A stretch of 64,000 nucleotides of DNA from an uncultured Spirochaetota bacterium (GCA_964518675.1 CAZFGQ010000004.1:3631-67630), one strand, 5' to 3'; positions 9,891 to 61,767 are shown, numbered from the stretch's first letter. Program-made: numbers and translations. The notes: generated by a model not told the origin, from the letters alone.

Positions 9891-9964
9891 AGGCCAGTAG
9901 CTCTAACTGGTAGAGCGCCGGTCTCCAAAACCGGATGTTGCGGGTTCGAATCCTGCCTGGCCTG
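9891..9964 (+). tRNA. tRNA-Trp (anticodon CCA)
   Basis: Acceptor AGGCCAG/CTGGCCT, anticodon stem CCGGT/ACCGG with loop CTCCAAA, T-loop TTCGAAT. Position between rpmG and secE is typical. Confidence 0.85.
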
Positions 9965-9997
9965 AATTTTTTTAATGTCTTCATATCAGGGGGAGGT

Positions 9998-41125: not shown

Positions 41126-42751
41126 GTGCTTGAAAAAGAATATCCAAGACTGGTACGGAAAGGACTCGAGGAGGGACTTAGATTCTGGGGGCTTGATGTT
41201 GATACCGATAAGGATACCCTTATATCGTTCATCAGTAATATAAATAACATACTAAAAGGTATATCAAAGCTGGAGGAGGGAGAAAATAGGGTACTAACAT
41301 TCCTTTTAATGAAGAATGGAAAGGCAGAGAAAGATGATTTGAGAAGCATTATCCAGAGTGAAAAAGAGCTTGAGAAGGCTATCACCGGGCTTGAGAAAAA
41401 GTTTTTTATTTATGTCAGGAAAGATAGAAGCACTCTTACCGACAGGCATGATAAACTATACGTTTACCCTGTTATACTTTCGAAACTTACAGAGATTCCC
41501 GTTATTGAAGAAGATAAATTCGGACCTTTTCTGGACAAATATTATGAGCCCCTGTATAAATCATGTAATGTTCCCCGGGCTGTTATTGAAAGCCTGAGAT
41601 ATGGAGGGATCATTTTTGGAGGTGATGTTATTGCAGGGTCCAGTGACTTGAAAAAAACTCCTGACATTTCCGGGTTTTCAACCTATCTCTTGTACTTGCG
41701 CGGTTGTTTTTATCCATTTTACCTTCCGCCAATAACAGAACTGGAATCAGAGCAGGATATCAGAGAGGGAAGCTTCCAAAGAGGTTTCATATTTTCTGAT
41801 TATATAATCAAAGTAATATTGATATGTGATATTTTTCATCACTTCCCGAAAATTAGAAAAGCCGGGATAAAGAAAAGGATGGGGTCTCTGGGATTTAGCA
41901 TTTCTGATGGTGAATATGCTAGTATTCTGGATGACCTGAATATGTCTGGCGTTATTGATGTTTCAGAGAGAAGGGTTAATGTCAGTACGATGTTTCTTTA
42001 TGGAAACTATAGTGAGAAAATAAGGTACTTTGAATCAATACTTGGTGAAGACGAGAGAAACGTTATTGAAGAAGTCAGAAAGAGATCACCTTTAAGGGTT
42101 GATATTCTTACGTCGATTCTTGTTCGAAATTTAAGATTAAAGGAAAGGCGTTTTTCACTAACTGATGAGATTGCCGCTAAGATATACAAAAATTATTCAG
42201 ACAAACTTGAGAGGATTATTACTCTTGGTTTTATCGAACGGGATTTCAGCAGAACTTTTCTCAGAGCTTCTGAGTTGGAGTGCAGGATTCCGGAGAAAAA
42301 ATTTTTACAGATAAATGCAGACGGGGAAATTTTTGTTTATACGGAACTTATGAACGGATATGTATACTACTTACTATGTGGATTCGCCCGTCTTATATCT
42401 GTAGAGAAGATTCTAAAATTTAAACTTGATAAGGATTCGGTTATCAGAGGAGTAGTTTTATTTGCGTCAGCTGATGAGTTTATAGATATGATTAAAAATT
42501 GTTCAATTGGGAAACCAGAACCTTATGTTGTAGAAACTATTAAGGCATGGGCATGTGAAGGGTCGAAGATTAAAATTGGTCAAAGGTATGTTCTAAGAAT
42601 CGATGAGAGATTAAAACTGAAAATTATGGGGAGTGACAAACTCAGGGGAATGGTTGAACTTGTTTCTGGTGATTACATAGTTTTTAAGGAAGATACCGAT
42701 GTGGAACGATTAAAGGGTTACCTGCGTGATGAAAACATCTTTATCGATTGA
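41126..42751 (+). CDS. Hypothetical cytoplasmic protein, 541 aa, no recognisable domain
   Basis: GTG start immediately after the stop of the preceding ORF. Long uninterrupted ORF with no Walker or other motif I can name. Confidence 0.5.
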   Translation: MLEKEYPRLVRKGLEEGLRFWGLDVDTDKDTLISFISNINNILKGISKLEEGENRVLTFLLMKNGKAEKDDLRSIIQSEKELEKAITGLEKKFFIYVRKDRSTLTDRHDKLYVYPVILSKLTEIPVIEEDKFGPFLDKYYEPLYKSCNVPRAVIESLRYGGIIFGGDVIAGSSDLKKTPDISGFSTYLLYLRGCFYPFYLPPITELESEQDIREGSFQRGFIFSDYIIKVILICDIFHHFPKIRKAGIKKRMGSLGFSISDGEYASILDDLNMSGVIDVSERRVNVSTMFLYGNYSEKIRYFESILGEDERNVIEEVRKRSPLRVDILTSILVRNLRLKERRFSLTDEIAAKIYKNYSDKLERIITLGFIERDFSRTFLRASELECRIPEKKFLQINADGEIFVYTELMNGYVYYLLCGFARLISVEKILKFKLDKDSVIRGVVLFASADEFIDMIKNCSIGKPEPYVVETIKAWACEGSKIKIGQRYVLRIDERLKLKIMGSDKLRGMVELVSGDYIVFKEDTDVERLKGYLRDENIFID

Positions 42752-44561: not shown

Positions 44562-45485
44562 CTAAAGTGCATTTAAATCGGATCTCGTATAATAGTGTTT
44601 GAGCAATATGCCTTCCCCAGTAATATACTTCTTTTTTTCCCCATTGATCAAAATACTGACGGTTTTGACTTCATCAAATTCGAAGCACGTGAGAAGTATC
44701 TGTTTAAGTTGAATCTCGATTGCTTTTCTTCCAAGATAGTTATTCTCAAAATTTTCATTAAAATTAAGTGTGAGATGATTATTTTTTAGGGAAGCTGAGA
44801 TTAATTTAGTCCCCTGAGGAATAAATGTTTTAAGCCCTCTTTTTCTTTCTGCTTCTCCAGGACCTTTCAATAGTAGCTGTATGGTTCTTGTGATTGGTGA
44901 ATCTATATATTTGACAGTTTTTTTAATACCGGCAAGAGTCATCTCTCCCGTGGTAGGGTCGACTGTGACATAGTAGATGGTGGAGGTTCGAGTGTTAACT
45001 GCTTTGGATTCTGCTTTTGTTTTTCTCGTGGTTGTTTTTTTACTTTCTACCTTTTTGGCAGTGTCTAACCTTTCTGGTGTTTTTTGTGTTTCCAAACGCC
45101 TTTCTGAACTGGCTGAGGCTGTTTCTTTTTCCTCATTGGTCTTTTCTTCTTTTTTTATCTCCTCTTTTTGTTCAATTTTCTTTTCTTCGATTATTTGTTT
45201 CTCAGGAATTACTTTCTCAGATTTTTCTTCTTTTGTTTCCGGTTTGATTAACGTAATTTCTTCTTTTTTATCTTTTTCCTGAACTTCGTCCTCACTCTTT
45301 GTTTCTTCTTTGACGATGACTTTCAGCTTTTGCTCACCTTTTATAACTGAGACTAATGAATTGATTGTCTCTTTAAACGAACCTTTACCTCTATAGAGGA
45401 ATATTACTGCTATTATAAGCAGTATAAATATCCAGAAGAGACAACCTGTTCTTCTTATTTTTCTGGATTTGCCTCGCCTTGCCAT
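44562..45485 (-). CDS. GerMN-domain protein with N-terminal TM anchor and a K/E-rich low-complexity linker
   Basis: N-terminal TM (CLFWIFILLIIAVIFL). A 150-aa K/E/T-rich linker. The C-terminal region (IDSPITRTIQLLLKGPGEAERKRGLKTFIPQGTKLISASLKNNHLTLNFNENFE...VSILINGE) matches GerMN (sporulation/germination) domains. Confidence 0.65.
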   Translation of the reverse strand: MARRGKSRKIRRTGCLFWIFILLIIAVIFLYRGKGSFKETINSLVSVIKGEQKLKVIVKEETKSEDEVQEKDKKEEITLIKPETKEEKSEKVIPEKQIIEEKKIEQKEEIKKEEKTNEEKETASASSERRLETQKTPERLDTAKKVESKKTTTRKTKAESKAVNTRTSTIYYVTVDPTTGEMTLAGIKKTVKYIDSPITRTIQLLLKGPGEAERKRGLKTFIPQGTKLISASLKNNHLTLNFNENFENNYLGRKAIEIQLKQILLTCFEFDEVKTVSILINGEKKKYITGEGILLKHYYTRSDLNAL

Positions 45486-45565: not shown

Positions 45566-45991
45566 ATGAAGCGGATAAAGTTATTGGTAGTTTTGATTCA
45601 GGTATTGTTCCTCCTTTCATGTTCAAAGGAGCCGGAAAAACTTATATTAAGTATAAATGGTCGTTACCTTGAAGTGGAGGTCGCACGTACTGAGAAGGAG
45701 AGAGAGAAGGGCCTGATGAATCGTAAGTCTCTTGGCTGGAATGAAGGGATGCTCTTTATTTTTGATGATGATCAATACCTCTCTTTCTGGATGAAAAATA
45801 CTAGCATTCCGCTTTCGATCGCTTTTCTGGATAAAAATGGTATTGTGACCGATATATACAGTATGAAGCCTTTTTCGCTAGAACCTGTTGTATCTTCGCG
45901 TAAATGTAGATATGCTATTGAGGTCAATGATGGTTTTTTTGAAGAATGTGGACTAAAAATTGGAGACAGAATTGAGATTAACATCCAGTAG
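45566..45991 (+). CDS. DUF192-family lipoprotein
   Basis: Lipobox (LFLLSC). DUF192 pattern: EVARTEKEREKGLMNRKSLGWNEGMLFIFDDDQYLSFWMKNTSIPLSIAFLDKNGIV...YAIEVNDG. Confidence 0.75.
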   Translation: MKRIKLLVVLIQVLFLLSCSKEPEKLILSINGRYLEVEVARTEKEREKGLMNRKSLGWNEGMLFIFDDDQYLSFWMKNTSIPLSIAFLDKNGIVTDIYSMKPFSLEPVVSSRKCRYAIEVNDGFFEECGLKIGDRIEINIQ

Positions 45992-47032: not shown

Positions 47033-48340
47033 ATGTTTAATAATGTTAAAAAGTTTATAATCCTTTTTTTCCTGCTGTTTCCTGGTATCTGTTCGGCTGA
47101 TTTTCATGAAGTTTTTATCAACACAGAGCCAGTTGGTGCTGAGGTTAAACTGGATTATCAACCTCTTGGTAAAACCCCTGTTCGGGTTGTTCTTGAGCAG
47201 AAAAAGAAATATCTGATGGAGATAGAAGCAGAGGGATATCATCAGTTTAGCACAGAGAAGTTCCTTGGTGAAAAAAGAAGAGAGGTTCTCTTTTTTACTC
47301 TGAAACCAGAGAAGGTAAATATCGTAATCGAGCACAAAAATGAGGAATTATACATAAATGGCGTGACAGCAGGAAAAACACCTGTAATGATTACAGGTCT
47401 TCCCGATGGGTTTTATAGGATTGAATCGAATGAAAGTGGGATTCATCTATGGGTTGGAGATGGATGGGAAACAAGAAGAGAATCGCTTGTTGATTTGTTT
47501 TTCAGTTCTTCAATTCTTGGATTGTCTGTGACAGGATTTGTACTCAACGATGACAGAGACTATGAAAAAGAAATATTTTTTAAATCCTCGGCGCTGATAT
47601 TTGGAATAATCTCAGGCTATAATTTTATGAAGTTCCTCAAGTCACATTTTGAGTATCGATCACAGTTTAATGATTTCTATAATGTGGATGTAAAACCCTA
47701 TAATGTCAACGATGCGAAGAGTAATTTTGTAAAAGGGATGGAATTACTGGGCAACGGAAATTATAAAGAAGCAATACCCTATTTTAATTTAATATCTGAA
47801 CTCTATCCTGATTCTGAATACCTGCCAATTTCTATTTATGAAATAGGGTATTGTTACTACATGCTGGATGATCCTAAAGGAATTGAATATCTCAAGAGGT
47901 ATGTTGAAGAGTATCCACAGCCAGATCTTTTTCAATTAGCAGTAATGATGCTTCTGGAGTACCAGTTAAAGAGAAATCTTGTCTACGATGCTCTCGTAAC
48001 ATATCAAAAAGTTCGGCCGGTTATAATTCACGATTCGGATGGAGAAATAATTGTTTCTTACTATCGTATCCTGACGGATATATACAAACGAACGGGTAAG
48101 GTATATAACATTATAATCAGAGATATTCTGAGAGAGATAAATTATTTTTTGACCAATTATAAGGATGTACCGAAGTATCCGGATATACTCCTATTAAAGG
48201 GTAAACTTCATTATAAGTATCTTGATAAAGAGCTTGGTGAAAAAATCTTTAAGAGGATTCTTGATGAATATACTCACAGAGATGATTTAAAAAAGGAGAT
48301 CAGGGCTATCAGTGAATATGGAAAAGGTACTTTGCTTTGA
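47033..48340 (+). CDS. PEGA-domain protein with a C-terminal TPR-like region
   Basis: Signal peptide. Two PEGA-like repeats (INTEPVGAEVKLDYQPLGKTPV; LYINGVTAGKTPVMITGLPDGFYRIE). A TM segment, then a TPR-like helical C-terminus (NYKEAIPYFNLISELYPDSEY...). Confidence 0.65.
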   Translation: MFNNVKKFIILFFLLFPGICSADFHEVFINTEPVGAEVKLDYQPLGKTPVRVVLEQKKKYLMEIEAEGYHQFSTEKFLGEKRREVLFFTLKPEKVNIVIEHKNEELYINGVTAGKTPVMITGLPDGFYRIESNESGIHLWVGDGWETRRESLVDLFFSSSILGLSVTGFVLNDDRDYEKEIFFKSSALIFGIISGYNFMKFLKSHFEYRSQFNDFYNVDVKPYNVNDAKSNFVKGMELLGNGNYKEAIPYFNLISELYPDSEYLPISIYEIGYCYYMLDDPKGIEYLKRYVEEYPQPDLFQLAVMMLLEYQLKRNLVYDALVTYQKVRPVIIHDSDGEIIVSYYRILTDIYKRTGKVYNIIIRDILREINYFLTNYKDVPKYPDILLLKGKLHYKYLDKELGEKIFKRILDEYTHRDDLKKEIRAISEYGKGTLL

Positions 48341-50555
48341 ACTGAGGGGTTTTATCCTTGGGGTGGACTCCTCACAGGTAGAAAAGGTACTTGTTAATAA
48401 AAATCCCAGCAGGGAGAGCTTTACACTCGCTACAGGGGTTGAAATAAAGCCATTATGGGAATATATCCCACTTCCTGAAAGAGCAGAAAAAATATCAGAA
48501 AACATAATTTTCATTAAGGATCAGAAGGACTCTTACGGGTTTACTGTGGATAGGGTAAGGGGATATGTGAATGTAAGAGCATCTGAAAGGCAACACCAGA
48601 AAATGGAGCAGGGCCCCATAAGATACTATATAAAAATTGATGGGGATCTGATCCCGGTTCTGGATCTTGCTTTTATTACCAATAATAAAGGTTCTGTTGG
48701 AGAGGAACATATAAAAGAAATTGTTGAAATGAGCAGAGGCATTTCTCAGGATGGAGGGGAGGTTGAAGAGGAGCCTTCTCTTACTGTAAGCAAAGAGGAG
48801 GTGTTCAGAAGCATTGAAGAGGAGATAAAGAGAAGCAAGAAGGATTTTTCTGAAACGGTAATCAAAAGTGAAAGAAAAGGTTTTCTTTTTCCCGTTTTGA
48901 TAAATGCGGGAATAGTTCTTTTGTTTGGAGCTGGTCTATTATACTTCATTATGACAAACAGAGAAAGCCTATCAATGGCCTATATGGGGGGTGTTGTTAC
49001 TGGAGTTGAGGAAGAGGTTATCAAGGAGATTAAGAGGAGATCTGAGGAAGAGTTAAGTCAGCAGAGGAAAAAGCTTGAGGAAGCAAAAAGGAGACTTGAA
49101 GCTCTTCGAAGGGAAAAAGAGTTTTTCGAAAAGAATCAGGATAAAATTTTAGCAGAGAAGGAGAAAAAACTCAGGGAAGAGTATAACAGGAAACTTGAGG
49201 AAATAAGAAAGAGACTTGAAGCGAGTGGTGTTGCAAATGTTGAGGAGGCATTCCAGGCAGAGAAACAGAAGCTTTACCAGGAATACCTTGCTTCTCTTCA
49301 GGCGACCAGGAGCGAGATTGAAAAGGTAAAAAGGCAGTATGAAGAGGCACTGAAACAGAAAGAGGCCGAGATAAAAAAGGAGGTGAATATTTACTCCCGG
49401 AGATTGGCAGAGATGGAAGCCCAACTTGAGTCAGAACAGAGTAAATTAAGGAAGGTTGAAGAACAGTTCAAGAGTGTTGCAGCAAAGCAAAAAGAATACG
49501 AAGCTTTTAGGAACCAGCTAAATCTGATTTATGATAGAGCTCTTAAATATCTGGAAAAAGGAAATACTTCTAGAGGACTTGAAACACTGCGAAATGCAAT
49601 AAGCATCCTCAATGAGGCAGAAAAAAGAGGGCTCACAGATCCCTTTGGCCTCAGTGTTGAAAAGGAACTTATAAACAGGATGATATATATTACTGAAAGA
49701 GAAAGGGCCAAGGTTGATGTAAACGAACTTGCCCGCAAAACATTGCTTTCAGCGAATACACTGGAAGCTGCCGGTAAAGAGAGGGAGGCTCTTTATAAAT
49801 ATTTTACCGTTTACACAATAGCAAAAGACCAGAATTTGCGTGAGAGAGCTTATAAAAAGGCCCAGGATATAATGAATAGAATATATGCTGAAATCTCTTC
49901 AGAAGAAAAAGCCAGATTGGAGTCGGAAGCAAGCGACCTGATCAAAAAGGCCGGAAAGATGATCGATAGTGGAGATTATGATAGGGCTGTAGAGCTCCTG
50001 TATGCTTCTCTATCGACACTAACTGACCCTGCTATTGCAAAGGATGTCTTGAATAAAATAGCCTATATAAAAGAAATGAAGCTGGAGGAAGAGCAACAGA
50101 GAGCAGTGCAGGAACGGGAGAAAAATGCCAGTGTTTTGATGGCAAAGGCAGATGAGCTTTATAAAAAGGGATTTTTTAGCGAAGCAATTGATTACTACAG
50201 AGAGATTGCCACAAACTTCAGCGGTACGAGGAGTGCCGATATTGCTATTGATAGACTTATAAGTATTAGCGAAAAAATGAAGGAATATAAGGTAGCATCA
50301 AGGGGAAGAATAGAGGTTACAGGTAAGGATACCTCGGTGGTTATTCAAAAGCTTGGTACCTCGCAGGTTATAATTGGTCTCGGAGGAAATGATGGTGTGA
50401 AATCCGGAGACACACTTCAGGTCTACCGTAAGATCGGGTCCGAGTTTCAATTTGTATGTACTTTAAGGGTTTTTGAGGTGTATCCAACCAGCTCCAAAGC
50501 GTCTGTAACCTATTTTGAGCGGAGCGTTAAGGTAGGGGATATAGTTACTTATTAG
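48312..50555 (+). CDS. CheW-like-domain protein with a single TM helix, ~450 aa of coiled coil/TPR-like repeats, and a small C-terminal beta domain
   Basis: The N-terminal 130 aa match the CheW fold (LCFELRGFILGVDSSQVEKVL...IIFIKDQKDSYGFTVDRVRGYVNV...IPVLDLAFI). TM helix (GFLFPVLINAGIVLLFGAGLLYFI). Long EK-rich heptad region. The C-terminus is GDTLQVYRKIGSEFQFVCTLRVFEVYPTSSKASVTYFERSVKVGDIV. Overlaps the PEGA gene by 29 nt. Confidence 0.7.
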   Translation: MNMEKVLCFELRGFILGVDSSQVEKVLVNKNPSRESFTLATGVEIKPLWEYIPLPERAEKISENIIFIKDQKDSYGFTVDRVRGYVNVRASERQHQKMEQGPIRYYIKIDGDLIPVLDLAFITNNKGSVGEEHIKEIVEMSRGISQDGGEVEEEPSLTVSKEEVFRSIEEEIKRSKKDFSETVIKSERKGFLFPVLINAGIVLLFGAGLLYFIMTNRESLSMAYMGGVVTGVEEEVIKEIKRRSEEELSQQRKKLEEAKRRLEALRREKEFFEKNQDKILAEKEKKLREEYNRKLEEIRKRLEASGVANVEEAFQAEKQKLYQEYLASLQATRSEIEKVKRQYEEALKQKEAEIKKEVNIYSRRLAEMEAQLESEQSKLRKVEEQFKSVAAKQKEYEAFRNQLNLIYDRALKYLEKGNTSRGLETLRNAISILNEAEKRGLTDPFGLSVEKELINRMIYITERERAKVDVNELARKTLLSANTLEAAGKEREALYKYFTVYTIAKDQNLRERAYKKAQDIMNRIYAEISSEEKARLESEASDLIKKAGKMIDSGDYDRAVELLYASLSTLTDPAIAKDVLNKIAYIKEMKLEEEQQRAVQEREKNASVLMAKADELYKKGFFSEAIDYYREIATNFSGTRSADIAIDRLISISEKMKEYKVASRGRIEVTGKDTSVVIQKLGTSQVIIGLGGNDGVKSGDTLQVYRKIGSEFQFVCTLRVFEVYPTSSKASVTYFERSVKVGDIVTY

Positions 50556-50563
50556 TTTGAAAT

Positions 50564-51160
50564 TTATGGAAGGAATGGAATTGGAAATCTTGTCCTTATA
50601 AAGTAGAAGGTGCTGCTGTCCAGCCTTCCGGAATATAGAATACCCACATCACATTTAATCCTGAAATAGCTATTTTTAAGGATTTTTCTTCTTACTTCCA
50701 GACCTGTTAAAAGATAAAAGTGTAAGGGTGAAAGAACATTCTCAAAATCCAGATAGGTTAATGAGAATCCTATTCCTGAAAATGGAATTATTTTAAGTTT
50801 CTTTGTTATTTTAAGGGGATAACCAACAGCTGCTGAAAAAGGAACTGTTATAAGAATGCTGCTGGAGTTCTCGATAAGGTTTGTTGCCATTCCTAACTCA
50901 TAGATTGAAATACATTTTGAAGAATCGAAAAAAAACTTTATCATGGGGCTTATCATACTTATGTAGCCACCCAGGTAAACTCCCTGTTCTGGCTTTTTGA
51001 ACTCTGATAAGTTTTTAAGATCGGATTTGATAAAGAGGTAATTGAAGGTACCAAAGGATATGTCGACCTGAGGTTTGTAGTCAACCATCCCTGCCAGGAT
51101 TGATCCAGGAATGAGGGCAACAGTGAGCAAAAGCAGAAGTTTATATTTTACCGGTTTCAT
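50564..51160 (-). CDS. Hypothetical secreted protein (possible small beta-barrel OMP)
   Basis: 198 aa with an N-terminal signal (LLLLLTVALIPGSILAG) and alternating hydrophobic strands. Lies 16 nt downstream of the cyclase gene on the same strand. Confidence 0.5.
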   Translation of the reverse strand: MKPVKYKLLLLLTVALIPGSILAGMVDYKPQVDISFGTFNYLFIKSDLKNLSEFKKPEQGVYLGGYISMISPMIKFFFDSSKCISIYELGMATNLIENSSSILITVPFSAAVGYPLKITKKLKIIPFSGIGFSLTYLDFENVLSPLHFYLLTGLEVRRKILKNSYFRIKCDVGILYSGRLDSSTFYFIRTRFPIPFLP

Positions 51161-51175: not shown

Positions 51176-52831
51176 CTATTTTATGGCTGCTGTGTACACT
51201 CCATCCCAGTCTTCTGGTGGAGGATTCTTTATAAGTTCGGTACATCTATCTATGTACATAGATGTGGGTATATCCTCTGGGAGCATATCTCTGCACTCCC
51301 TGAATGCTTCCAGTGCTTCTTTAAATTTTCTATTTCTGTAGAGTTCGATTGCACTGTTAAATATGTTAAAAGCTTTTTCCATTTCTCCTGAGTCTGGAAT
51401 GAATGGCTGATAGATTTTTACTGGTTTCAACTTGCCCATAACTCGAACTGAGTCGAGTTCTCTTACCTTTATTTGCCCATTCATGGCTCTGTGTGTATGT
51501 TCGCTGATTATTATTGGAACCCTGTACAGTTTTGTGAGCCCTTCCAGCCTCGAGGCAAGGTTCACAGTATCACCAACACAGGTATAATCTAGTTTTTGTG
51601 TTGAACCAATATTACCTACAACAACCTCTCCAGTATTGATTCCAATTCCTATTCTGAATGGAGGTCTCCCGAGTTTGGTCTGCCTTTTATTGAAAGATTT
51701 TAATGACTGAAGCATTTCAAGGCCGGTAATAGTAGCCTGAAAGGGATCATCGTCGTGTTTTGCTGGGGCACCAAATATGGCCATTATGGCATCACCTATG
51801 AACTTATCTATTGTGCCTTTGTGTTGAATAATGATTCCGACCATAAGGTTGAAGTATGTGTTCAGTGAGGTTACAAGCTCCTCAGCAGAAAGGCTCTCAG
51901 AAATTGTTGTGAAGCTTCTGATGTCGGAAAACAGAATAGTGACAATCTGTTTTTTCCCAATCAACAGGTCTTTACCGCTGGATTTCATTACCTCGTCAAT
52001 TACCTCTGCCGGGACATATTTCTGGAATATCTGTCTGATCCTCTCTTCATTATTTTTAGCCAGTACTGATTTATAAGCATATTCCTTGATTTTATTATAC
52101 GCAATCTCAAGATCTTCAATCATATAGTTAAACCAGGTTGCCAGGTATCCGATTTCATCATCGTATTCAACATTTACTCTTTTTGAAAGGTCGTTTGTTG
52201 TGATGATTTCTTTCATAGTAGATACTACATTGCCAATTGGGTCTGTTATCTTTTTAATCGAGAAGAGGATGAATATTACAGCAATTACCAGGGTGATACC
52301 CATAATGAAGGCCACCTGCTTTTTAATGCTATTTGCATTTTCATAGAATACTTCTTCTTTTTCACTCAGCAGGAGATACCAGTCCCATGGCTCAAAATAC
52401 ATGAAGTACCCTATTCGTGAGCCATCGATAAAAGTAAAGTTAACCAGGCCGTTTATTTTACCCTTTATATTTTTAAAAAAACTATTATCTGATATATTCG
52501 TAATTTCGAGTTTTGGGAATATGATTTCACCGGAAGAATTAAAGGCCATGAAGTATCCGGTTTCTGATAAGCCTATGGTTTTTGCATATTCTTCAGCTGA
52601 CTTTTTTGCGAGCTCGCGATAATTTTCTTCTTCGGCAAGACCGGTTTCAACGAGGATATCTTCCTGCCTACGGCAGTATTTGTACATCTCTGCAACTTTA
52701 TAGCTCAAAAACTCTCTTGTAACCTTGGTTATGCCCTGCCTTGCTGAGAAGTAGGAAGTAAAGCCAACGAGGATTAAGGGTAAAATGAGAATGGGAAGGA
52801 TTACTACAAGGACTTTTGTTCTTATTTTCAT
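51176..52831 (-). CDS. Sensor adenylate/guanylate cyclase (periplasmic sensor, HAMP, class III cyclase)
   Basis: Two TM helices flank a ~150-aa periplasmic region. HAMP-like linker. Cyclase core TILFSDIRSFTTISESL...IDKFIGDAIMAIFGAP...GINTGEVVVGNIG...VGDTVNLASRLE. C-terminal helical (TPR-like) tail. Confidence 0.88.
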   Translation of the reverse strand: MKIRTKVLVVILPILILPLILVGFTSYFSARQGITKVTREFLSYKVAEMYKYCRRQEDILVETGLAEEENYRELAKKSAEEYAKTIGLSETGYFMAFNSSGEIIFPKLEITNISDNSFFKNIKGKINGLVNFTFIDGSRIGYFMYFEPWDWYLLLSEKEEVFYENANSIKKQVAFIMGITLVIAVIFILFSIKKITDPIGNVVSTMKEIITTNDLSKRVNVEYDDEIGYLATWFNYMIEDLEIAYNKIKEYAYKSVLAKNNEERIRQIFQKYVPAEVIDEVMKSSGKDLLIGKKQIVTILFSDIRSFTTISESLSAEELVTSLNTYFNLMVGIIIQHKGTIDKFIGDAIMAIFGAPAKHDDDPFQATITGLEMLQSLKSFNKRQTKLGRPPFRIGIGINTGEVVVGNIGSTQKLDYTCVGDTVNLASRLEGLTKLYRVPIIISEHTHRAMNGQIKVRELDSVRVMGKLKPVKIYQPFIPDSGEMEKAFNIFNSAIELYRNRKFKEALEAFRECRDMLPEDIPTSMYIDRCTELIKNPPPEDWDGVYTAAIK

Positions 52832-54485: not shown

Positions 54486-56018
54486 ATGAAAAATTGCTGT
54501 ATTGTTAATCTGCTGCTTCCGGGAGAATGGTGGGTTCGAGAAATCTCGGGAGTAAGCCCGGTAAAAGTTATTCTGGAAAAGAGCAAGAAATTATTCAGGG
54601 CTGATGAAATACTGTGCCTTATTGATGATAAAATACCGGATGATTTGCTTTCCATTGTGCGTTCTTGCATTTCGGGAGAAAATATTGTCTCTGTCGAGAA
54701 TAGAAAATTTTCGACAGTGATCAAAAAACTGTTCAATGAATTGAGTAAGGTTAAAAATTGTGAAAATCTTGTATTTGTCCATGGAGATTCCCCTCTTATA
54801 GACCTGGACCTTATTTCTCGAATGCTTGCAATACATAGTGATCAACTTGCCGAATACACCCATGGCGAGGGATATCCAGCCGGGTTCCTTCCGGAAATCC
54901 TCAGGATAGAGATTATTCCGAGATTATTAAAACTTTCTGAGAGCTTTGATCCGGATTTTGACAGATCAGCTATTTTTAAGGTTATTTCAAAGGAGGTAAA
55001 TTCGTTTGATATAGAGACCCTTTTTGCTGATGAGGATCTAAAACTTAGAAGAATTGAGGCTATAACATCCAGCTGGAGAGAACGTTTGATTGTGGAAAAT
55101 GTTATTAGATCTACGGGGAAGAAGGAGCTTGATATCTCTTATAAAGAGTTTTGTGAGCTCATCAGGAGAGAACCTTTGATTTTAAGACCCACTCCCACGT
55201 ACTGTCAGGTAGAGATTACGAGTCTTCGAAATGATGAATGTATATATTACCCCATTGAATTTATGGAGAGACGACCGGGCCAGATGAAACTTGACGATTA
55301 TCTTAGAATTCTTGATAAGCTTGTCACGATAAATCCAGAGATGTATATAGAGATATCCTATCTCGGTGAGCCGTTACTGCATCCAAACTTTCAGACAATT
55401 ATTAAGAAAACTCTCGAAAATCCTTGGGTGAAGTTGATTGTTCTTACAAATGGCCTGCTCTGGACTCCGGGGATGTCTGAGGATATTGTTAAAAATTATG
55501 GTGAGAATGATAGATTGTTTATAATATTTGAACTTGATGCTGTAGAAGAGAAAACCTATGCAAAAATAAGGCGGGGAGACCTCTTTAAGGTTGAAAGGAA
55601 CATCAGGTATCTTCATTCTCTTGGTTTTAAGAATCTCTTTGTTCAGTTTACAAGAATTGATCTAAATGAGGATGAGATGATCAGGTTTTACCAGAGCTGG
55701 GAAAAGGAGGGCGTAAAGCCTGTAATTCAGAAGTTTAACAGTTTTTCGGGATTATTACCGGGGTTCTCGGATTATGATATTACCCCACTTGAGCGCTGGC
55801 CATGTTATCACCTGGAAAGGGAGATGGTTATCTTTTACAATGGAGATGTCCCGAAATGCAAACAGGACATCAATTTGCGGTATCCTCTGGGAAATCTTAT
55901 TACCGACTCTGTTGCAGATGTATGGAAAAATGGGAATAAATATTATCTTGAACATGTAGCAGAAAAGTACGATGATCTGTGTTCTGAGTGTGACGAGTAC
56001 TTTACCTTTAATTTTTAG
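54486..56018 (+). CDS. Fusion protein: N-terminal nucleotidyltransferase-like region plus C-terminal radical-SAM-like/SPASM-like domain with a degenerate Cys motif
   Basis: N-terminal region has LVFVHGDSPLIDLDLISRM (DxP-type NTP-transferase motif) but no glycine-rich loop. C-terminal region has GEPLL (ISYLGEPLLHP) and TNG (LIVLTNGLLW) radical-SAM motifs. The cluster loop reads PTPTYCQVEITSLRNDECIYY, only two Cys instead of CxxxCxxC. Cys-rich tail: CYHLE...PKCKQD...CSECDEY. Confidence 0.6.
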   Translation: MKNCCIVNLLLPGEWWVREISGVSPVKVILEKSKKLFRADEILCLIDDKIPDDLLSIVRSCISGENIVSVENRKFSTVIKKLFNELSKVKNCENLVFVHGDSPLIDLDLISRMLAIHSDQLAEYTHGEGYPAGFLPEILRIEIIPRLLKLSESFDPDFDRSAIFKVISKEVNSFDIETLFADEDLKLRRIEAITSSWRERLIVENVIRSTGKKELDISYKEFCELIRREPLILRPTPTYCQVEITSLRNDECIYYPIEFMERRPGQMKLDDYLRILDKLVTINPEMYIEISYLGEPLLHPNFQTIIKKTLENPWVKLIVLTNGLLWTPGMSEDIVKNYGENDRLFIIFELDAVEEKTYAKIRRGDLFKVERNIRYLHSLGFKNLFVQFTRIDLNEDEMIRFYQSWEKEGVKPVIQKFNSFSGLLPGFSDYDITPLERWPCYHLEREMVIFYNGDVPKCKQDINLRYPLGNLITDSVADVWKNGNKYYLEHVAEKYDDLCSECDEYFTFNF

Positions 56019-56178
56019 AGCTTCCGATGTAGGTTGCTGTGCCCTTTATTTGTCCCGGTACAATCTGACGGTGTGAAGTCATCGGTTATTGGTAATAAGA
56101 TGTTTTTTGTAATATGATTTGGGTCTATCTTATTATGGTTTCAGGAGCTGTGTTTAAAATAATAATTTTTAAAATATT

Positions 56179-56868
56179 GTGATGGGCAGATCTATAGTTA
56201 TTCTACAGGCAAGATTAGCCTCTAAAAGACTACCTCTAAAATTGTTACTTCCACTAAGTGGTTATTCCATTCTGGAACATATCATTATGAGGATTAAAAA
56301 GGCAAGTAGGCCGGATGGATTCGTGATTGCGACGACTGAAGATACTGCAAAGGCCATAAGGCACATTGCGGACTTCTATGATGTCAGAATTATTACAGGT
56401 GATGAAAAAGATGTTCTTGGGCGTTTTGTCAAGGCTGCAATCGATGCACAGGCAGAGCATATTGTGAGAACAACAGGTGATAATCCTCTGGTTTCAATAA
56501 AATATATAGATAGAACCCTTGAACTTCACCTTGAATCCGGTGCCGATCTCACTACCTATCCCCTCCTTCCTCTGGGCACAGGAGTTGAGGTTATAAAAAG
56601 AGAAGCACTTATAAAGGCACACAGGGAGGCTGAGGAGGATTTTGAAAGAGAGCATATTACTCAGTACATCTACAGGAATGAGAATGATTTTAAAATAATA
56701 AGGGGGGTTCCGGATTCTCCCTATCTTTTTCCTGAACTTAGGCTTACCGTTGATAATGAGATGGACTATCGATTTTTAAAGCATATCTACTCCAATCTTT
56801 TTAAAGGTAGTGTGCTGAATCTTAAAGAGGTTATCTCATTTGTTCTTAAAACCGAGAATTATTCATAA
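56179..56868 (+). CDS. Acylneuraminate/CMP-sugar cytidylyltransferase family protein (SpsF/PseF-like)
   Basis: SIVILQARLASKRLPLKLLLPLSGYSILEHIIMRI (N-terminal nucleotide loop) and VRTTGDNPLV (DxP motif), as in SpsF/NeuA/PseF-type enzymes. Confidence 0.8.
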   Translation: MMGRSIVILQARLASKRLPLKLLLPLSGYSILEHIIMRIKKASRPDGFVIATTEDTAKAIRHIADFYDVRIITGDEKDVLGRFVKAAIDAQAEHIVRTTGDNPLVSIKYIDRTLELHLESGADLTTYPLLPLGTGVEVIKREALIKAHREAEEDFEREHITQYIYRNENDFKIIRGVPDSPYLFPELRLTVDNEMDYRFLKHIYSNLFKGSVLNLKEVISFVLKTENYS

Positions 56869-56965
56869 GGGATATGGTATTTTCTCCGGACATGTCAGAT
56901 TAATTGAAGAGTTACTTTTGCTCTATTTAAAGAGTATTTTATTGGTAAAGATTTTCGGATGGTAA

Positions 56966-58750
56966 GTGTTTGATATGAATAAACTCAATGTTCTTTTTTA
57001 TACAGTTTGCGGCGGAAAGTTTGGAATGGGGCATTTTATCAGATGTCTGGCTCTTGCCCTCAAAGGAAATAATTTTATTGAAGGCTTCTTTTATCTTAGG
57101 AAATCAGGTGGTTCTCGGAAAAAACTTGCCGGGGGAAGGATTCCGCTTCCGAATAACTCAAGATATATTAATGAAATTGATGATTTGGAAGATGTTAATC
57201 TGGTGGTTTCAGATGTAAGGAATACATCCCCAAAGGAGATGAGAAAACTGACGAAAATTGCTCCTGTTATTTCGTTTGATGACTGGGGAGCTGGCATGGA
57301 CTATGCTCATGTTACCATTTATCCTCTTCCTACACTCCGTGAGATAAGCGGAAATCTTTTTGGACTGGAATACCTGATTCTTAACCCTGCGGTTACAGCT
57401 ACTAGTCCTTTATCAATTAAGGATAAGAAAGGTGTGCTTGTATGTTTTGGCGGTTCAGATCCATATAATCTGAGCCCAGTTGTAGCCAGGGCCCTCAATC
57501 AAATTGGTATAAGGCCTTTAGTCGTTGCTGGACCTTTTTCTGAGATTAACAAGGATGAGTTCGATGGTCAGCTTGTAAGAGATTTTTCAATTCTGCCTGA
57601 GTTGTTGAACAAGTCCAGGTTAGTAATTACCAGCTTTGGAATAACTTTATTTGAAGCTATGTACCTTCAGACTCCAGTTATATTGTTCAACAACACTGCA
57701 TATCATAACAAACTTGCAGAAAAGTTTGATGTTATTAGCCTTGGTTATAGAAACAGAAAAATCATTCCAAAATTACCAAAATTACTTGAGAGAACCATTG
57801 GGGGCGAAGATGTTCTTATTGAAAGAGCGGAGATGAACAAAAAACTCATTGACGGGAAAGCTGCTGAGAGAATACTGGAGCTGATGAAGAAAACGGCGTT
57901 TAGCGGAAGGAGAAGGTGTCTTTTTAACCATCAGAAATACTATTCGGTAAAAAGAGGAACGAAGAATACATTATTTAGATGTCGGAAATGTGGGGATCTT
58001 TTTAATTTTTTGTTTGATTCAGAGGGAGATAATTATGACTCTCCTTCCTACTTTCTTTCAAATTACAGAGCACAGTATGGAAAGACGTACATCGCCGATA
58101 GAGAAAACATAGAGAGGATGGCTGGGTTGAGACTTGAAAGGATAGAAAATATTTTGGGCAGACATGGAAAATTGCTGGATGTCGGCAGTGCCCTTGGTTT
58201 CCTTGTGAAAGTTGCGAGAGATAGAGGATGGGATGCTGAAGGAGTTGAAATTTCAGCCTATGCAGTTGAGTGGTCAAGGCGGAGACTTGGAATTAATGTC
58301 CACAGAGGCTCTTTTTTCGATGTGGAGCTGGATAAAGATGGTTACGATGTTATAACATTTTTTTATGTTCTTGAACATTTTAAGGAACTTGATAGGGTAA
58401 TTGAAAAAGTAAAGAGTGTTCTGAAAAGTGGTGGAATTTTAGCTATAGCAATGCCCAACCGTGGCGGTATAAGCTTCAGGTTTAATCGCAGGGATTATCT
58501 CAGGGATCATCCAAATGATCATTATATTGATACTACACACCGTAATCTGAGAAAATACCTGAGGAATTATGGATTTGGAAAGTTCTATACTATCTCTACT
58601 GGAATCCATCCTGAGAGATTTTTTTCTATTTTGAGATTGAATAAGCTGGGATTGAATGAAAAAAGAGAACTGTTGTACCGAATATATTGTACAGCAGCGA
58701 AGAAATTAAATCTTGGGGATACATTTGAGCTCTATGCAGTTAAAAATTAA
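56966..58750 (+). CDS. Fusion of a PseG/SpsG-like UDP-sugar hydrolase domain with a class-I SAM-dependent methyltransferase domain
   Basis: N-terminal ~310 aa: NVLFYTVCGGKFGMGHFIRCLALA... (PseG-like G-x-GH-x-x-R) and a GT-B C-lobe. Linker has a CRKCGDLF zinc-ribbon-like element. C-terminal ~220 aa: LLDVGSALGFLV...DVITFFYVLEHF...GGILAIAMPN (Rossmann methyltransferase motifs I-III). Confidence 0.7.
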   Translation: MFDMNKLNVLFYTVCGGKFGMGHFIRCLALALKGNNFIEGFFYLRKSGGSRKKLAGGRIPLPNNSRYINEIDDLEDVNLVVSDVRNTSPKEMRKLTKIAPVISFDDWGAGMDYAHVTIYPLPTLREISGNLFGLEYLILNPAVTATSPLSIKDKKGVLVCFGGSDPYNLSPVVARALNQIGIRPLVVAGPFSEINKDEFDGQLVRDFSILPELLNKSRLVITSFGITLFEAMYLQTPVILFNNTAYHNKLAEKFDVISLGYRNRKIIPKLPKLLERTIGGEDVLIERAEMNKKLIDGKAAERILELMKKTAFSGRRRCLFNHQKYYSVKRGTKNTLFRCRKCGDLFNFLFDSEGDNYDSPSYFLSNYRAQYGKTYIADRENIERMAGLRLERIENILGRHGKLLDVGSALGFLVKVARDRGWDAEGVEISAYAVEWSRRRLGINVHRGSFFDVELDKDGYDVITFFYVLEHFKELDRVIEKVKSVLKSGGILAIAMPNRGGISFRFNRRDYLRDHPNDHYIDTTHRNLRKYLRNYGFGKFYTISTGIHPERFFSILRLNKLGLNEKRELLYRIYCTAAKKLNLGDTFELYAVKN

Positions 58751-59927
58751 AGTTCTTATTAAAATACTTCTAATAATAGCAGTACTTATTACAGGATATT
58801 TGTCGTCTGTCCAGGATGCTTTTTCTGCTGGGACACCTTCAGAAACAGGTGCAGCTAAAACCGGGTATGTGAATATTATCCAGGTTATTGATTATTTTAA
58901 TCTTGATTATGAATTTGATGAATTGGCAGGTGTTTTAGTTTTAAAGAAAGGTACTCAGACTTTAATCCTTCATGCTGGTAGCAAAGCATATTATTACGGT
59001 GACAGAACCTACTTTTCCAGCTTACCTGTACGTATTGAAACTGGCAGGATCTTTGTGAGCAGTGAAATTGTTGATTTCATTATTAAAAGGTTTGTTAGGA
59101 AGAGAGTAAAATGGGAGGTTGTAAATGGCAATTTTGTTGTTAGTGGAAGGACTCTGAGAGAAAAAGAAGTGGTGTCAGGGAGAAAGGGTACAGAATTAAC
59201 CACTCCCAGAAGGAGAATAGATATAATAATTATTGATCCAGGCCATGGAGGTAAAGATCCGGGTGGTATTGGCTATGGCGGAATCAAAGAAAAAGACATT
59301 GTTCTCGATATTTCCAAGTTATTGCAGAAAGAGCTGAGGAGGAGCTCCAATAAAAAGGTAATAATGACAAGAAAAGAGGATGTTTTTGTTTCACTTGAAG
59401 AAAGAAGCAAAATTGCCAATGGTAATAACAATGGGGGAAATAGTATTTTTGTCAGTATTCATGCAAATGTGGCTTTGGACAAGTCATCTAAAGGATTTGA
59501 GAGCTACTATTTATCTCTCCATCCGTTTGGAGAAAATGCAAGGGATGTTTCAGAGATTGAAAATGCTGTTATTACATATGAGGAGAAACCGTATGCTGAT
59601 TATCTCAAGGAAGTTTTGAATCGAGTTGTGGATGTTGAATATAGAAAAGAGAGCATGAAGCTGGCCAGCTATATAAATCAGGGTATTGCTCAGATGGTAA
59701 ACCAGGCAATGCCAAATAGGGGTGTGAAAGGTGCATTCTTTTATGTTTTGAAAGAATCCAAAATGGTAGCTGTACTGGTTGAAATTGGGTTTATAACAAA
59801 TAAAAAGGAGGCAGAATTGCTTAAAAGCAAGGAGTATCAAACAAAGCTTGCAAAGGGAATAGCTTCTGGTATAATAAGTTTTATAGTTGAATTTGAAAGA
59901 ACAAATGGTTTTACCGAAGGGTATTAA
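58713..59927 (+). CDS. N-acetylmuramoyl-L-alanine amidase (Amidase_3, AmiC-like) with an N-terminal AMIN-like domain
   Basis: Signal/TM. Amidase_3 catalytic region IIIDPGHGGKDPGGIG...VSIHANV...GFESYY...RGVKGAFFYVLKESKMVAVLVEIGFITNKKE. Likely true start at the ATG at 58734. Confidence 0.85.
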   Translation: MGIHLSSMQLKIKVLIKILLIIAVLITGYLSSVQDAFSAGTPSETGAAKTGYVNIIQVIDYFNLDYEFDELAGVLVLKKGTQTLILHAGSKAYYYGDRTYFSSLPVRIETGRIFVSSEIVDFIIKRFVRKRVKWEVVNGNFVVSGRTLREKEVVSGRKGTELTTPRRRIDIIIIDPGHGGKDPGGIGYGGIKEKDIVLDISKLLQKELRRSSNKKVIMTRKEDVFVSLEERSKIANGNNNGGNSIFVSIHANVALDKSSKGFESYYLSLHPFGENARDVSEIENAVITYEEKPYADYLKEVLNRVVDVEYRKESMKLASYINQGIAQMVNQAMPNRGVKGAFFYVLKESKMVAVLVEIGFITNKKEAELLKSKEYQTKLAKGIASGIISFIVEFERTNGFTEGY

Positions 59928-59928
59928 T

Positions 59929-60420
59929 ATGAAATATCGTAGTGCTACGTCTGGATTTAATGCAAAATTATATGTTTTCATGATTTTTTCATTTGTTATT
60001 ACTCTGATATTTCTTATATATATCGAAAATAAAAAATATGTTCGAATTAATATTTATCTTCCCCATATTAACTCAGCAGAGTTATCAAAAGAGGTCCGTT
60101 TTATTCCTAAAAGTGGTTCGAGAATTGAGAAGATCAGATGGATAATGGGCGAACTTATCTCGGGACCTCTCAATTCTGAACATCTCAGGGTCTTTAATCC
60201 TGATACCAAAATAAGGGATATATTTATTGAAAAGGGAGTTATGTACATAAATTTTGACTGGATGATAGTTGAGGCCTTTCATAAGAATTATTCCCAGGTA
60301 GTCAGCTCAATAAAGAAAACAATAGCCGATAATTTTTCTGGAATAAGAGAGGTGAGGCTTCTTATTGATGGGGTTGAACCCATTCTGTACAAAGGACCTA
60401 TTGTATTGAAGCTCAGGTGA
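59929..60420 (+). CDS. GerMN-domain protein downstream of the amidase
   Basis: Start ATG overlaps the amidase stop (TAATATG). N-terminal TM (LYVFMIFSFVITLIFLIYI). GerMN-like region (EVRFIPKSGSRIEKIRWIMGELISGP...IREVRLLIDGVEPI). The track ORF starts 42 nt earlier at 59887. Confidence 0.65.
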   Translation: MKYRSATSGFNAKLYVFMIFSFVITLIFLIYIENKKYVRINIYLPHINSAELSKEVRFIPKSGSRIEKIRWIMGELISGPLNSEHLRVFNPDTKIRDIFIEKGVMYINFDWMIVEAFHKNYSQVVSSIKKTIADNFSGIREVRLLIDGVEPILYKGPIVLKLR

Positions 60421-60822
60421 TTTGTCACCAAGGAGCTTTATAATTTTACCAAGGATATATTAGTATAGATAGGCCGCAGGTTATTTCTCTCCTATTTTTT
60501 TAATAAGGCGAACTTCGAGTTTTCAATTTGAAATGTGAATTATTGGATACAAATTGATACAGGATGGAGAAATCAATAAATATTTTTTAAGTTGTTCGTA
60601 ATTCGCCGGCACTGCAACATTTTTAATTCTATTATGCATTCAGATTTCTATATTTCAGAAATTTCCACATTCATTTTAATATTTATTAAAGATACGCTAA
60701 TGGATTTCCGATAAGAAAAGAGAACCATATTTATAATCTCAGCCCTGAAAATTTTTTTGACAGGGCTAGATTAATGAATATACTTATAATTAATAAAGAT
60801 TTGAGCGAAAGGAGCCTGAACA

Positions 60823-61767
60823 ATGAAAAAGGTCTTATTAGTGATTGTTTCTCTAATAATTCTACCTCTATCAGGGGTTGTATTTGCGCAGGAACAAAAG
60901 ATCCAGGGAGGACCACAGGTTTTAATTGATTTTTCAAATCTTAGCGATACTGAGATTGACTTTTCTAAATTTCCGGGTGGTATCGCCGAGGGAATAACCG
61001 AATTGAAGGTGGATCTCAGTATTGAAAACTGGATGGTTAAACTCGCCCCCTCTTCTGCATCCATAAAAAATAGGGTCCTTTCATACTGTAAACCGGTTAA
61101 GAGCAGAAAGATGAATGCTGATGTACTCGGAGTAAGGGTACATTTTCCGACAGCACCATTTAATTCCTGGGCAAAGATTCTGCCTCCGTTTGAAATCCCA
61201 TTTTATGAGGACAAAGAAGGGGAGGAAGGTCAGGGAACAAAGTTCATCAATAAAGGTGTTCTGAGAAATGTGGGTACGATCAAATCCATCTCTGTAAGGG
61301 TAACCGGAAGAAACTTTCCACATGGGCTTTCCATCTCTCTAAAGGATTCGAGAGATACTGTCAGGGAGATGTTCCTCGGTTATCTTGATTTTGATGGTTG
61401 GAGAACCCTTACATGGAAGAATCCTAATTACATCTCTGATGTGAAGCAGAGAGATCTCCGGAAGATCCCTCTCTATCCACAATTAGAGCCATCAGTTAAG
61501 TTTGATTCATTCACGATTTACAGGCATGGCAGCCAGATAGGTGGAGATTTTGTGACATACATAAAGGATGTTCAGATGGTTTATGACCTTGCCATCCTCG
61601 AAACGGAAAGAGATATTGATGATGAGGCTGTATGGGGAATATTAAAGGCCAGAAAGGAAGCCAAGAGAGCGGCTGAGATCAGAAGGCTGGGTATGTTACA
61701 GTTACTGAGACAGCAGGAACTCATTAAGATGCAGCATGCAGTAACAGAGGCGCCTCCAGCTCAGTAA
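60823..61767 (+). CDS. flaA: Flagellar filament outer-layer (sheath) protein FlaA homologue
   Basis: Signal peptide (LSGVVFAQEQ). From memory the sequence aligns along its length with spirochaete FlaA: VLGVRVHFPTAPFNSWAKILPPFEIPFYE; GVLRNVGTIKSISVRVTGRNFPHGLSISLKD; FLGYLDFDGWRTLTWKNPNYISDVKQRDLR; GGDFVTYIKDVQMVYD. Confidence 0.7.
   Translation: MKKVLLVIVSLIILPLSGVVFAQEQKIQGGPQVLIDFSNLSDTEIDFSKFPGGIAEGITELKVDLSIENWMVKLAPSSASIKNRVLSYCKPVKSRKMNADVLGVRVHFPTAPFNSWAKILPPFEIPFYEDKEGEEGQGTKFINKGVLRNVGTIKSISVRVTGRNFPHGLSISLKDSRDTVREMFLGYLDFDGWRTLTWKNPNYISDVKQRDLRKIPLYPQLEPSVKFDSFTIYRHGSQIGGDFVTYIKDVQMVYDLAILETERDIDDEAVWGILKARKEAKRAAEIRRLGMLQLLRQQELIKMQHAVTEAPPAQ

Follow-up and report, generated by a model that had tools for sequence, protein, structure and literature searches.

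A membrane-anchored protein with a CheW-like head on a periplasmic scaffold linked by gene neighbourhood to sensory adenylate cyclases in uncultured Spirochaetota

Results

Gene, topology and predicted structure

We analysed a stretch of 64,000 nucleotides from an uncultured Spirochaetota bacterium (GCA_964518675.1, CAZFGQ010000004.1:3631-67630), referred to as the window. A gene on its plus strand (48312-50555) encodes a protein in which a CheW-like N-terminal head is followed by a single membrane anchor and a long periplasmic region. This protein, the target of the present study, is listed with its parts and neighbouring genes in Table 1. A preliminary description had placed a membrane-anchored CheW-fold protein at this position, and both the extent of the open reading frame (ORF) and the observation itself were confirmed. 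The ORF starts with GTG and is preceded by an AAGGAG Shine-Dalgarno sequence 13 nt 5' of this codon; some database copies start at an in-frame ATG two codons after the GTG and comprise 745 aa. The start of the gene overlaps the 3' end of the upstream gene, encoding a protein with PEGA and TPR domains (the PEGA-TPR partner), by 29 nt.

The sole hydrophobic peak of the target (Kyte-Doolittle value 2.3) corresponds to the transmembrane (TM) helix, which is flanked by five lysine and arginine residues on its N-terminal and one on its C-terminal side. No N-terminal signal peptide was found. The single TM segment, the charge bias of its flanks and the lack of a signal peptide together indicate that the first 190 residues are located in the cytoplasm and the last approximately 530 in the periplasm. 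To obtain a structural model, AlphaFold2 (AF2) was run on a 30-sequence alignment of the family, resulting in a mean predicted local distance difference test score (pLDDT) of 75.9. The model displays a beta-rich head (residues 4-117), helices 232-305 and 310-415, both very long, a series of roughly ten shorter ones reaching residue 657, and a beta domain at 674-746, in agreement with the small C-terminal beta domain claimed earlier. Confidence drops to pLDDT values below 50 across residues 143-194 in the tether between head and membrane. The tether is of constant length (64-69 aa in 30 members), and its juxtamembrane part is shared with relatives of the protein that carry no CheW-like head, referred to as headless relatives.

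On the periplasmic side, the TM helix is followed by a juxtamembrane motif with the invariant columns G231, E233, E234, I237, E239, R242 and S244 (alignment A1), which is still recognisable in distant headless relatives. The adjoining stalk comprises 184 residues and would measure approximately 27.6 nm as a single continuous helix; a break is conserved at S305-G306. Glutamate, lysine, arginine, glutamine and aspartate account for 53% of residues 225-410. A helix periodicity of 3.58-3.64 residues was detected at 232-305 (z = 3.3, a value reached by approximately 0.7% of shuffles) and was borderline at 310-415 (z = 1.8), while the power at a strict heptad period of 3.5 residues did not exceed that of shuffled sequences. 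The 450-residue, glutamate- and lysine-rich coiled coil of heptad repeats that had been proposed for this part is thus retained as a set of long charged helices within a periplasmic portion of about 430 aa, but not as a strict heptad repeat. TPR-like segments had been suggested as well. In the target sequence itself, TPR_1 alone was matched at a sub-threshold level (E = 0.89), but TPR_2, TPR_6 and YfiO were matched in up to 10 of 30 relatives (best E = 1.4e-7). In addition, matches in the PDB to designed TPR and helical-repeat proteins were obtained (E = 7e-4 to 7e-3), and the AF2 model shows helical hairpins in this region. The C-terminal barrel scored 22 bits against the Pfam family FlgT_C, compared to a cutoff of 27. 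Its fold matches Vibrio FlgT and the LPHT-ring structure, and equally well the N-terminal barrels of F1-ATPase and FliI; because of the latter matches we consider the barrel to be of a generic type.

The CheW-like head

The Pfam CheW model (PF01584) scored 20.9 bits (E = 2.9e-4) on the target, below its gathering threshold of 23.5 bits. Taken by itself, this result formally speaks against the CheW domain named in the preliminary description; however, it is overturned by evidence from the family and from structure. The same model was matched independently by 19 of 30 relatives at E ≤ 0.01 (best 8.7e-6), and a precomputed PF01584 call is present on a few of them. When a head-only profile was compared with the PDB, Thermotoga maritima CheW was the sole significant match (E = 7.9e-5) and was covered over the full domain. 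The head consists of two intertwined five-stranded beta-barrels, as is characteristic of the CheW/P5 fold. As family-level and structural evidence both support this fold, the similarity is not coincidental, and these data show a CheW/CheA-P5 double-barrel fold for the first 125 residues, which lie in the cytoplasm. Conservation is higher in the head (0.72) than in the periplasmic parts (0.57-0.64). When 5.8 billion proteins were searched with the head alone, all matches were truncated fragments from this family, and neither a stand-alone form nor any other architecture was found. In a published survey of the architectures of CheW-domain proteins, a membrane-anchored class is not described; the 16 common arrangements, which account for approximately 94% of CheW-like domains, do not include that of the target (bioRxiv 10.1101/2022.05.07.491035).

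To compare the head with functional CheW proteins, the contact residues of Escherichia coli CheW were mapped onto the family through T. maritima CheW by a profile alignment with an E-value of about 1e-4. Profile comparison reaches its limit of sensitivity at this level, and what is described here of the hairpin is therefore indicative rather than proof. In E. coli CheW, the hallmark Arg62 of the 'RG' turn forms a salt bridge with Glu38 (PMC3828127), and a hairpin spanning T46-P67, which carries most of the interface-1 contacts, docks onto CheA-P5; the contact residues have been listed (PMC13098124). Among 20 aligned heads, the position of Arg62 is occupied by glutamate in 17, serine in two and alanine in one, and by arginine in none. 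The adjacent Gly63 is retained (G42 in the target), and an acidic residue is still present at most one position away from that of Glu38 (E24). The interface-1 hairpin is shorter by approximately 11 residues, leaving G57, V58, N60 and I65 of E. coli CheW without an aligned column, and is replaced by an invariant motif specific to the family (N29, K30, P32, F37, L39, T41, G42, V43, E44, K46, L48 and P53). The hydrophobic residues of the fold core and the structural glycines (G63/G99) are kept in the family heads. Judged from this residue pattern, the head is probably not a CheW in the canonical functional sense. Aligning the head profile directly to the lone E. coli CheW sequence with hhalign had locked onto an internal pseudo-repeat (72-119 versus 27-72, probability 1.7%) and was useless for mapping.

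We also estimated how far the head could extend from the membrane. With the predicted helices intact, the tether would reach approximately 17 nm, and approximately 23 nm only when fully stretched, while the baseplate of chemoreceptor arrays is located about 22-25 nm from the membrane in short and 35-40 nm in tall arrays (PMC7184735). The predicted geometry of the tether, compared with a baseplate depth of 22-40 nm, thus disfavours docking of the head into an array.

The scaffold family

The head-bearing family comprises about 34 proteins. Thirty-three full-length homologs of the target, with 38-44% identity and lengths of approximately 745-753 aa, occur only in metagenome-assembled genomes (MAGs) of uncultured Spirochaetota. 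Cluster look-ups provided no informative names (mostly none, otherwise hypothetical protein, TPR protein, or misannotations as BamD or SbcCD), and in an NCBIfam scan nothing came near a cutoff. An exhaustive profile search identified 1010 proteins at E ≤ 1e-3, 284 at E ≤ 1e-10 and 17 at E ≤ 1e-30. Most of these matches align only over profile positions ~150-655, that is, over the juxtamembrane helix, the TM segment, the periplasmic motif, the long helix and the TPR region.

Local domain hidden Markov models (HMMs) were run on 288 fetched proteins. Head, core, TPR region and barrel were all detected in 34 proteins; 11 carried the last three in combination with only about 40 residues preceding the TM helix, and 187 were matched by the core alone. 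The core HMM (JMTM) matched approximately 240 of the 288 relatives in total. The features common to the family, namely the juxtamembrane helix, a TM segment with SEKKG..P..N, the motif [G]xEExxIxEIxRxSE, a long helix and a TPR-like region, are all present in the target, and the motifs are visible in the relatives P0045, P0049, P0051 and P0070. These results place the core, with its membrane and periplasmic parts, in a far larger family, in which proteins without a CheW head are the majority. Other cytoplasmic heads were found in a few relatives: an uncharacterised 340-aa region in one, and a Lar_N-like domain in another. Orthologs from an Exilispira-like group keep a divergent beta-rich head below the detection of the head HMM. 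Within an older periplasmic scaffold family, the CheW-like head thus occurs in a single clade, to which the Exilispira-like group may have to be added, and was either gained there or lost elsewhere.

A single MAG (GCA_052744975.1; loci L024, L030 and L031) encodes at least three paralogs of the scaffold with different heads, each in a different gene context: P0040 without a head, P0036 with the 340-aa region and P0037 with the Lar_N-like domain.

Linkage to Cache-like/HAMP sensors

Tail-to-tail with the target, and separated from it by a gene for a secreted 198-aa protein, lies a gene for a class-III adenylate cyclase. The cyclase consists of a TM segment (7-25), a Cache-like periplasmic domain of about 150 residues, a second TM segment (174-192), a HAMP domain and a cyclase domain with intact catalytic motifs; the Pfam matches to Cache and HAMP were sub-threshold. 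An intact cyclase gene flanks the 3' end of the target gene in 14 of the 15 clade loci that extend far enough.

To determine whether this arrangement recurs, the neighbourhoods of more distant scaffold genes were compared. In eight of 12 independent contexts, the scaffold gene is located beside a gene for a TM/Cache-like/HAMP sensor, whose output domain is a class-III cyclase in seven, including the window, and a PP2C phosphatase in one. In six of the seven headless relatives sampled, a HAMP class-III cyclase of 556-566 aa is encoded directly downstream on the same strand, with a gap of 0-45 nt or an overlap. The flanks of these six cassettes are unrelated to each other, and their cyclases are 45-48% identical to the window cyclase over the full length (E = 1e-153 to 1e-165). 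The PP2C case is that of P0037, the relative with the Lar_N-like head, whose gene is followed by genes for an RsbW-like protein, a STAS protein and a Cache-HAMP-SpoIIE protein. The sensor half of this phosphatase is 35% identical to that of the window cyclase over approximately 240 aa (E = 1.5e-45). At the level of sequence, a single sensor module is therefore found with two outputs, a cyclase and a SpoIIE/PP2C phosphatase. No che or flagellar gene is adjacent to the scaffold gene in any of the 12 contexts. As had been stated before, no che genes are adjacent in the window either: a Pfam scan of the 64 kb, covering ORFs of at least 150 aa apart from a few in the ribosomal-protein block, identified none.

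The third gene of the headless scaffold-cyclase cassettes encodes a cytoplasmic protein of approximately 170 aa with the invariant motif KYKDxPENIF...Y..F...L.L.IEK. It has no match in Pfam or the PDB, does not occur in the window or at the clade loci, and is not related to the 198-aa protein of the window. The possibility that the head derives from fusion of a copy of this ~170-aa protein was not supported by hhalign (probability 1.3%), and a functional replacement of the ~170-aa protein by the CheW head is pure speculation.

The four-gene cluster

The order of the genes for the DUF192 protein, the 356-aa protein, the PEGA-TPR partner and the target is invariant across the clade, with the last two either overlapping or directly adjoining. 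The PEGA-TPR partner matches PEGA (E = 1.5e-16), TPR_6 (1.5e-9) and YfiO (6.9e-7) in Pfam; its second hydrophobic segment is weak, and its topology is uncertain. Homologs of this protein are encoded directly upstream of P0036 (E = 5e-27) and near P0047 (E = 1.6e-10). The 356-aa protein comprises a conserved alpha/beta N-terminal domain, 'VLIYYFKNITGDE', and a beta-rich C-terminal half ending in an aromatic residue. It has no match in Pfam or the PDB, and a profile built from its ortholog alignment (A2) matched the PDB at chance level only; its sequence pattern points to a probable outer-membrane protein. For the 198-aa protein, which has a signal-like N-terminus and is conserved in the clade, no significant family was found.

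Other features of the window

Elsewhere in the window, a run of genes (54486-61767) encodes enzymes of the radical SAM/SPASM, cytidylyltransferase, epimerase/methyltransferase and amidase types, a GerMN protein and the flagellar sheath protein FlaA. This run may represent a nonulosonic-acid or glycan modification cluster beside a flagellar filament gene. The window contains a second GerMN ('Germane') protein, as well as two full-length EF-G paralogs, one in str-operon position and the other elsewhere on the opposite strand. At about 8 kb, GC and AT skew change sign, from negative values to strongly positive ones, at the point where the gene orientation turns from minus to plus; GC skew remains positive over most of the remaining 56 kb, with a dip near 52-54 kb only. 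The switch in skew within positions 1-10000 most likely reflects gene-strand bias, with a replication landmark as the alternative.

Table 1. Features of the target gene, its neighbourhood and the remainder of the window. Positions are those of the window unless a locus (L) is named.
Feature	Position	Strand	Description and basis
Target, whole gene	48312..50555	+	747-aa bitopic inner-membrane protein; ORF call, homologs, AF2
CheW-like head, cytoplasmic	48312..48686	+	residues 1-125; best-conserved part of the protein
Tether	48687..48881	+	residues 126-190; acidic low-confidence linker, juxtamembrane helix 161-178, SEKKG motif
Single TM helix	48882..48953	+	residues 191-214, N-in/C-out; hydrophobicity, charge bias
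Periplasmic juxtamembrane motif	48993..49049	+	GVEEEVIxEIxRRSE; alignment columns, JMTM HMM
Periplasmic helical stalk	49005..49556	+	residues 232-415; AF2 helices, periodicity
TPR-like helical-hairpin region	49566..50282	+	residues 419-657
C-terminal small beta-barrel	50331..50549	+	residues 674-746; FlgT_C/F1-ATPase N-terminal type
Sensory class-III adenylate cyclase	51176..52831	-	convergent with target; Guanylate_cyc E = 3.4e-29
198-aa beta-rich protein	50564..51160	-	signal peptide; between target and cyclase, downstream of cyclase
PEGA-TPR partner	47033..48340	+	signal peptide, two PEGA, TM segment(s), YbgF/BamD-like TPR
Probable outer-membrane protein, 356 aa	45960..47030	+	signal peptide; ortholog alignment A2
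Secreted DUF192 protein	45566..45991	+	first of four-gene cluster; PF02643 E = 7e-34; N-terminal hydrophobic signal
~170-aa protein of headless cassettes	L022:11742-12257		
~170-aa protein of headless cassettes	L025:11197-11727		
~170-aa protein of headless cassettes	L026:11848-12363		
~170-aa protein of headless cassettes	L027:11522-12028		
~170-aa protein of headless cassettes	L028:10708-11220		
~170-aa protein of headless cassettes	L029:9137-9658		
Phosphatase of P0037 locus	L031:10532-12412		with L031:9495-10466
Radical SAM/SPASM protein	54486-56018		
CMP-sugar-type cytidylyltransferase	56179-56868		
Epimerase_2-like + methyltransferase fusion	56966-58750		
Amidase_3 protein	58713-59927		
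GerMN protein	59887-60420	+	overlaps end of N-acetylmuramoyl-L-alanine amidase gene
Flagellar sheath protein FlaA	60823-61767		E = 1e-61; 10 kb downstream of target
GerMN protein	44562-45485	-	TM anchor, long E/K-rich linker
EF-G paralog	5295-7382	-	full length
EF-G paralog	22860-24953	+	full length
HtrA-type protease	7580-9475	+	Trypsin_2 and PDZ; unusually long ~255-aa N-terminal extension without family match
Multi-pass membrane protein, 240 aa	40403-41125		precedes gene at 41126-42751; no family match
Clade-conserved 541-aa protein	41126-42751	+	weak Helicase_C_3 match, E = 1.5e-4

Discussion

In the target, the CheW-like domain occurs in a new architecture, placed on an uncharacterised family of putative sensor-accessory scaffolds. 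Canonical CheW domains are soluble proteins or parts of CheA and CheV and are encoded together with che genes. In contrast, the target is a 747-aa membrane protein without che linkage, in which the PF01584-like domain is tethered to the membrane and joined to about 530 residues of periplasmic sequence.

In our opinion, the best reading of the data is that the target spans the envelope as an accessory scaffold to a sensory adenylate cyclase, with the head as a repurposed cytoplasmic adaptor; we propose this tentatively and give it somewhat less than an even chance. The scaffold would act as an accessory partner of the TM/Cache-like/HAMP sensor. Because the outputs differ whereas the sensor module is conserved, the scaffold would probably contact the periplasmic or membrane part of the sensor. 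Stalk, TPR region and barrel might then link the sensor to envelope proteins, namely the PEGA-TPR protein and the probable outer-membrane protein of the same operon, and in this clade the CheW-like head would function as a cytoplasmic docking module, kept at a distance of at most approximately 17 nm from the membrane. As partner of the head, the cytoplasmic portion of the cyclase next to the membrane appears most plausible, or else a factor that acts on the cyclase, and envelope contacts could thereby tune the synthesis of cyclic AMP (cAMP). A comparable arrangement is known from Pseudomonas aeruginosa, where FimV (HubP family), a bitopic TPR scaffold, controls the class-III cyclase CyaB and is linked to a chemosensory pathway (PMC6855561). 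Both would be large bitopic TPR scaffolds that connect the envelope to a class-III cyclase; however, the analogy is functional only. FimV carries a periplasmic LysM domain, a TM helix and TPRs in an acidic cytoplasmic region; in the target no LysM domain was matched, the topology is inverted and there is no homology.

Several observations weigh against a role of the target as cyclase scaffold. The functional evidence for the partnership consists entirely of gene neighbourhood. Within the clade of the window, the cyclase gene is convergent and not co-transcribed with the target gene, and the whole region is collinear, so that the clade constitutes one independent observation; because this collinearity extends from L17 to the downstream genes, the synteny of the partner operon was downgraded as evidence as well. 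Four of the 12 contexts (P0040, P0049/P0045, P0051 and P0036) have no adjacent Cache/HAMP sensor, among them that of P0049/P0045, the Exilispira-like orthologs and thus the only other group with a beta-rich head. At one clade locus (L003:10943-11083, in the complete MAG chromosome CP070841.1), the scaffold is kept, but all that is present of the cyclase is its C-terminal 47 aa (57% identity), pointing either to gene loss or pseudogenisation in this lineage or to an artefact of assembly. Several headless relatives carry no taxonomic assignment. Finally, the known partners of the CheW fold are receptor tips and P5/CheW domains, and we know of no case in which a CheW fold binds a cyclase or a HAMP module. 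A more specific form of the proposal, according to which a CheW fold outside the array couples a Cache-like/HAMP cyclase sensor to envelope-anchored partners, with the ~170-aa protein taking the equivalent cytoplasmic role in the headless cassettes, is in our estimation unlikely to be correct; it would possibly imply a role in envelope or mechanical sensing.

The fold itself raises the question of chemotaxis. In Vibrio, ParP and CheV insert into the CheA/CheW baseplate, and the head might do likewise, either anchoring or positioning arrays relative to envelope landmarks or informing CheA. The fold is genuinely that of CheW/P5, the head is under strong purifying selection, and the hydrophobic residues lining the receptor-binding groove are retained along with G63/G99, although these hydrophobics double as residues of the fold core. 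The host is a flagellated spirochaete with a flaA gene 10 kb downstream of the target. Two genes for methyl-accepting chemotaxis proteins are located 5-7 kb from that of the Exilispira-like ortholog P0049; however, they are not adjacent, and che genes adjoin the scaffold gene in none of the 12 contexts. Arg62 is exchanged for glutamate, serine or alanine in 20 of 20 heads, the hairpin that would contact CheA-P5 is shortened by approximately 11 residues, and a reach of ~17 nm (23 nm stretched) compares unfavourably with baseplates at 22-25 and 35-40 nm. In addition, the scaffold core functions without a CheW head in most relatives. We therefore regard a function as array tether or integrator as improbable and the chemotaxis reading as weak, with no positive support beyond the fold. 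The preliminary description had suggested a non-canonical chemotaxis or scaffold component; the latter part is supported by a bitopic, periplasm-spanning helical/TPR protein encoded in a conserved operon with envelope proteins, while the former is countered by the loss of Arg62, the shortened hairpin, the short tether and the lack of adjacent che genes.

Two further explanations dispense with both arrays and cyclases, and we consider each of them quite unlikely, the second slightly more so. The target might be an accessory of the flagellar motor of the collar or H-ring type, forming part of the spirochaete-specific surround of the motor with a head that contacts cytoplasmic motor parts. Known collar proteins are composed of TM, coiled-coil and TPR elements, and much of the collar density is unassigned (PMC11750108, PMC8609358, bioRxiv 10.64898/2026.05.29.728556). 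FlbB of Borrelia burgdorferi shares the plan of TM segment, coiled coil and globular head (PMC11750108), and FlbB and FlcA-E are spirochaete-specific proteins with an inner-membrane anchor that extend into the periplasm and consist of a TM helix, a long coiled coil, TPR solenoids and globular heads, a make-up that the target resembles. The likeness is one of architecture only, as none of these or any other described collar protein has a CheW-like domain. The apparent restriction of the family to Spirochaetota, where taxonomy is known, would fit a motor function; however, flagellar genes are adjacent in no context, and a stalk of ~27 nm, if extended, exceeds the collar height of ~20 nm. The FlgT_C-like barrel would also favour a motor accessory, but it is of a generic type, matched equally by F1-ATPase and FliI. 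Moreover, Vibrio FlgT is soluble and secreted while the target is membrane-anchored, and neither the TolB-like N and M domains of FlgT nor its flagellar context were found. Alternatively, the target could bridge the inner membrane to the outer layers as a TolA-like tether, with the head as an inert cap and the cyclase adjacency incidental. TM anchor, long charged periplasmic helix and globular C-terminal domain resemble TolA, the partner gene upstream encodes YbgF/CpoB- and BamD-like TPRs, and the operon includes a probable outer-membrane protein. TIGR02794 is matched weakly (E = 2.5e-4), but at 20.4 bits against a cutoff of 59.45 and within the low-complexity helix, and NCBIfam scores for TolA and CpoB in general lie far under their cutoffs. 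TolQ, TolR, TolB and Pal genes were not found nearby. The cytoplasmic head has no counterpart in TolA and is the best-conserved region of the target, which is unexpected for an inert cap, and the linkage to cyclase or PP2C sensors recurs amid unrelated flanks.

CheW-like domains are commonly treated as markers of chemosensory arrays. If the proposed role of the target as cyclase scaffold is true, a coupling module of the array type would have been reused for cAMP signalling outside chemoreceptor arrays, and caution would be called for in reading every PF01584-like match as chemotaxis. Class-III cyclases are abundant in spirochaetes, and their control is poorly understood. The analysis has exposed a conserved and uncharacterised signalling cassette, which wherever the taxonomy is known belongs to Spirochaetota MAGs. 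Its components are the scaffold, the small KYKDxPENIF protein and a Cache-like/HAMP sensor whose output is a cyclase or PP2C. If the accessory role applies, the scaffold would provide a testable handle on the control of these cyclases.

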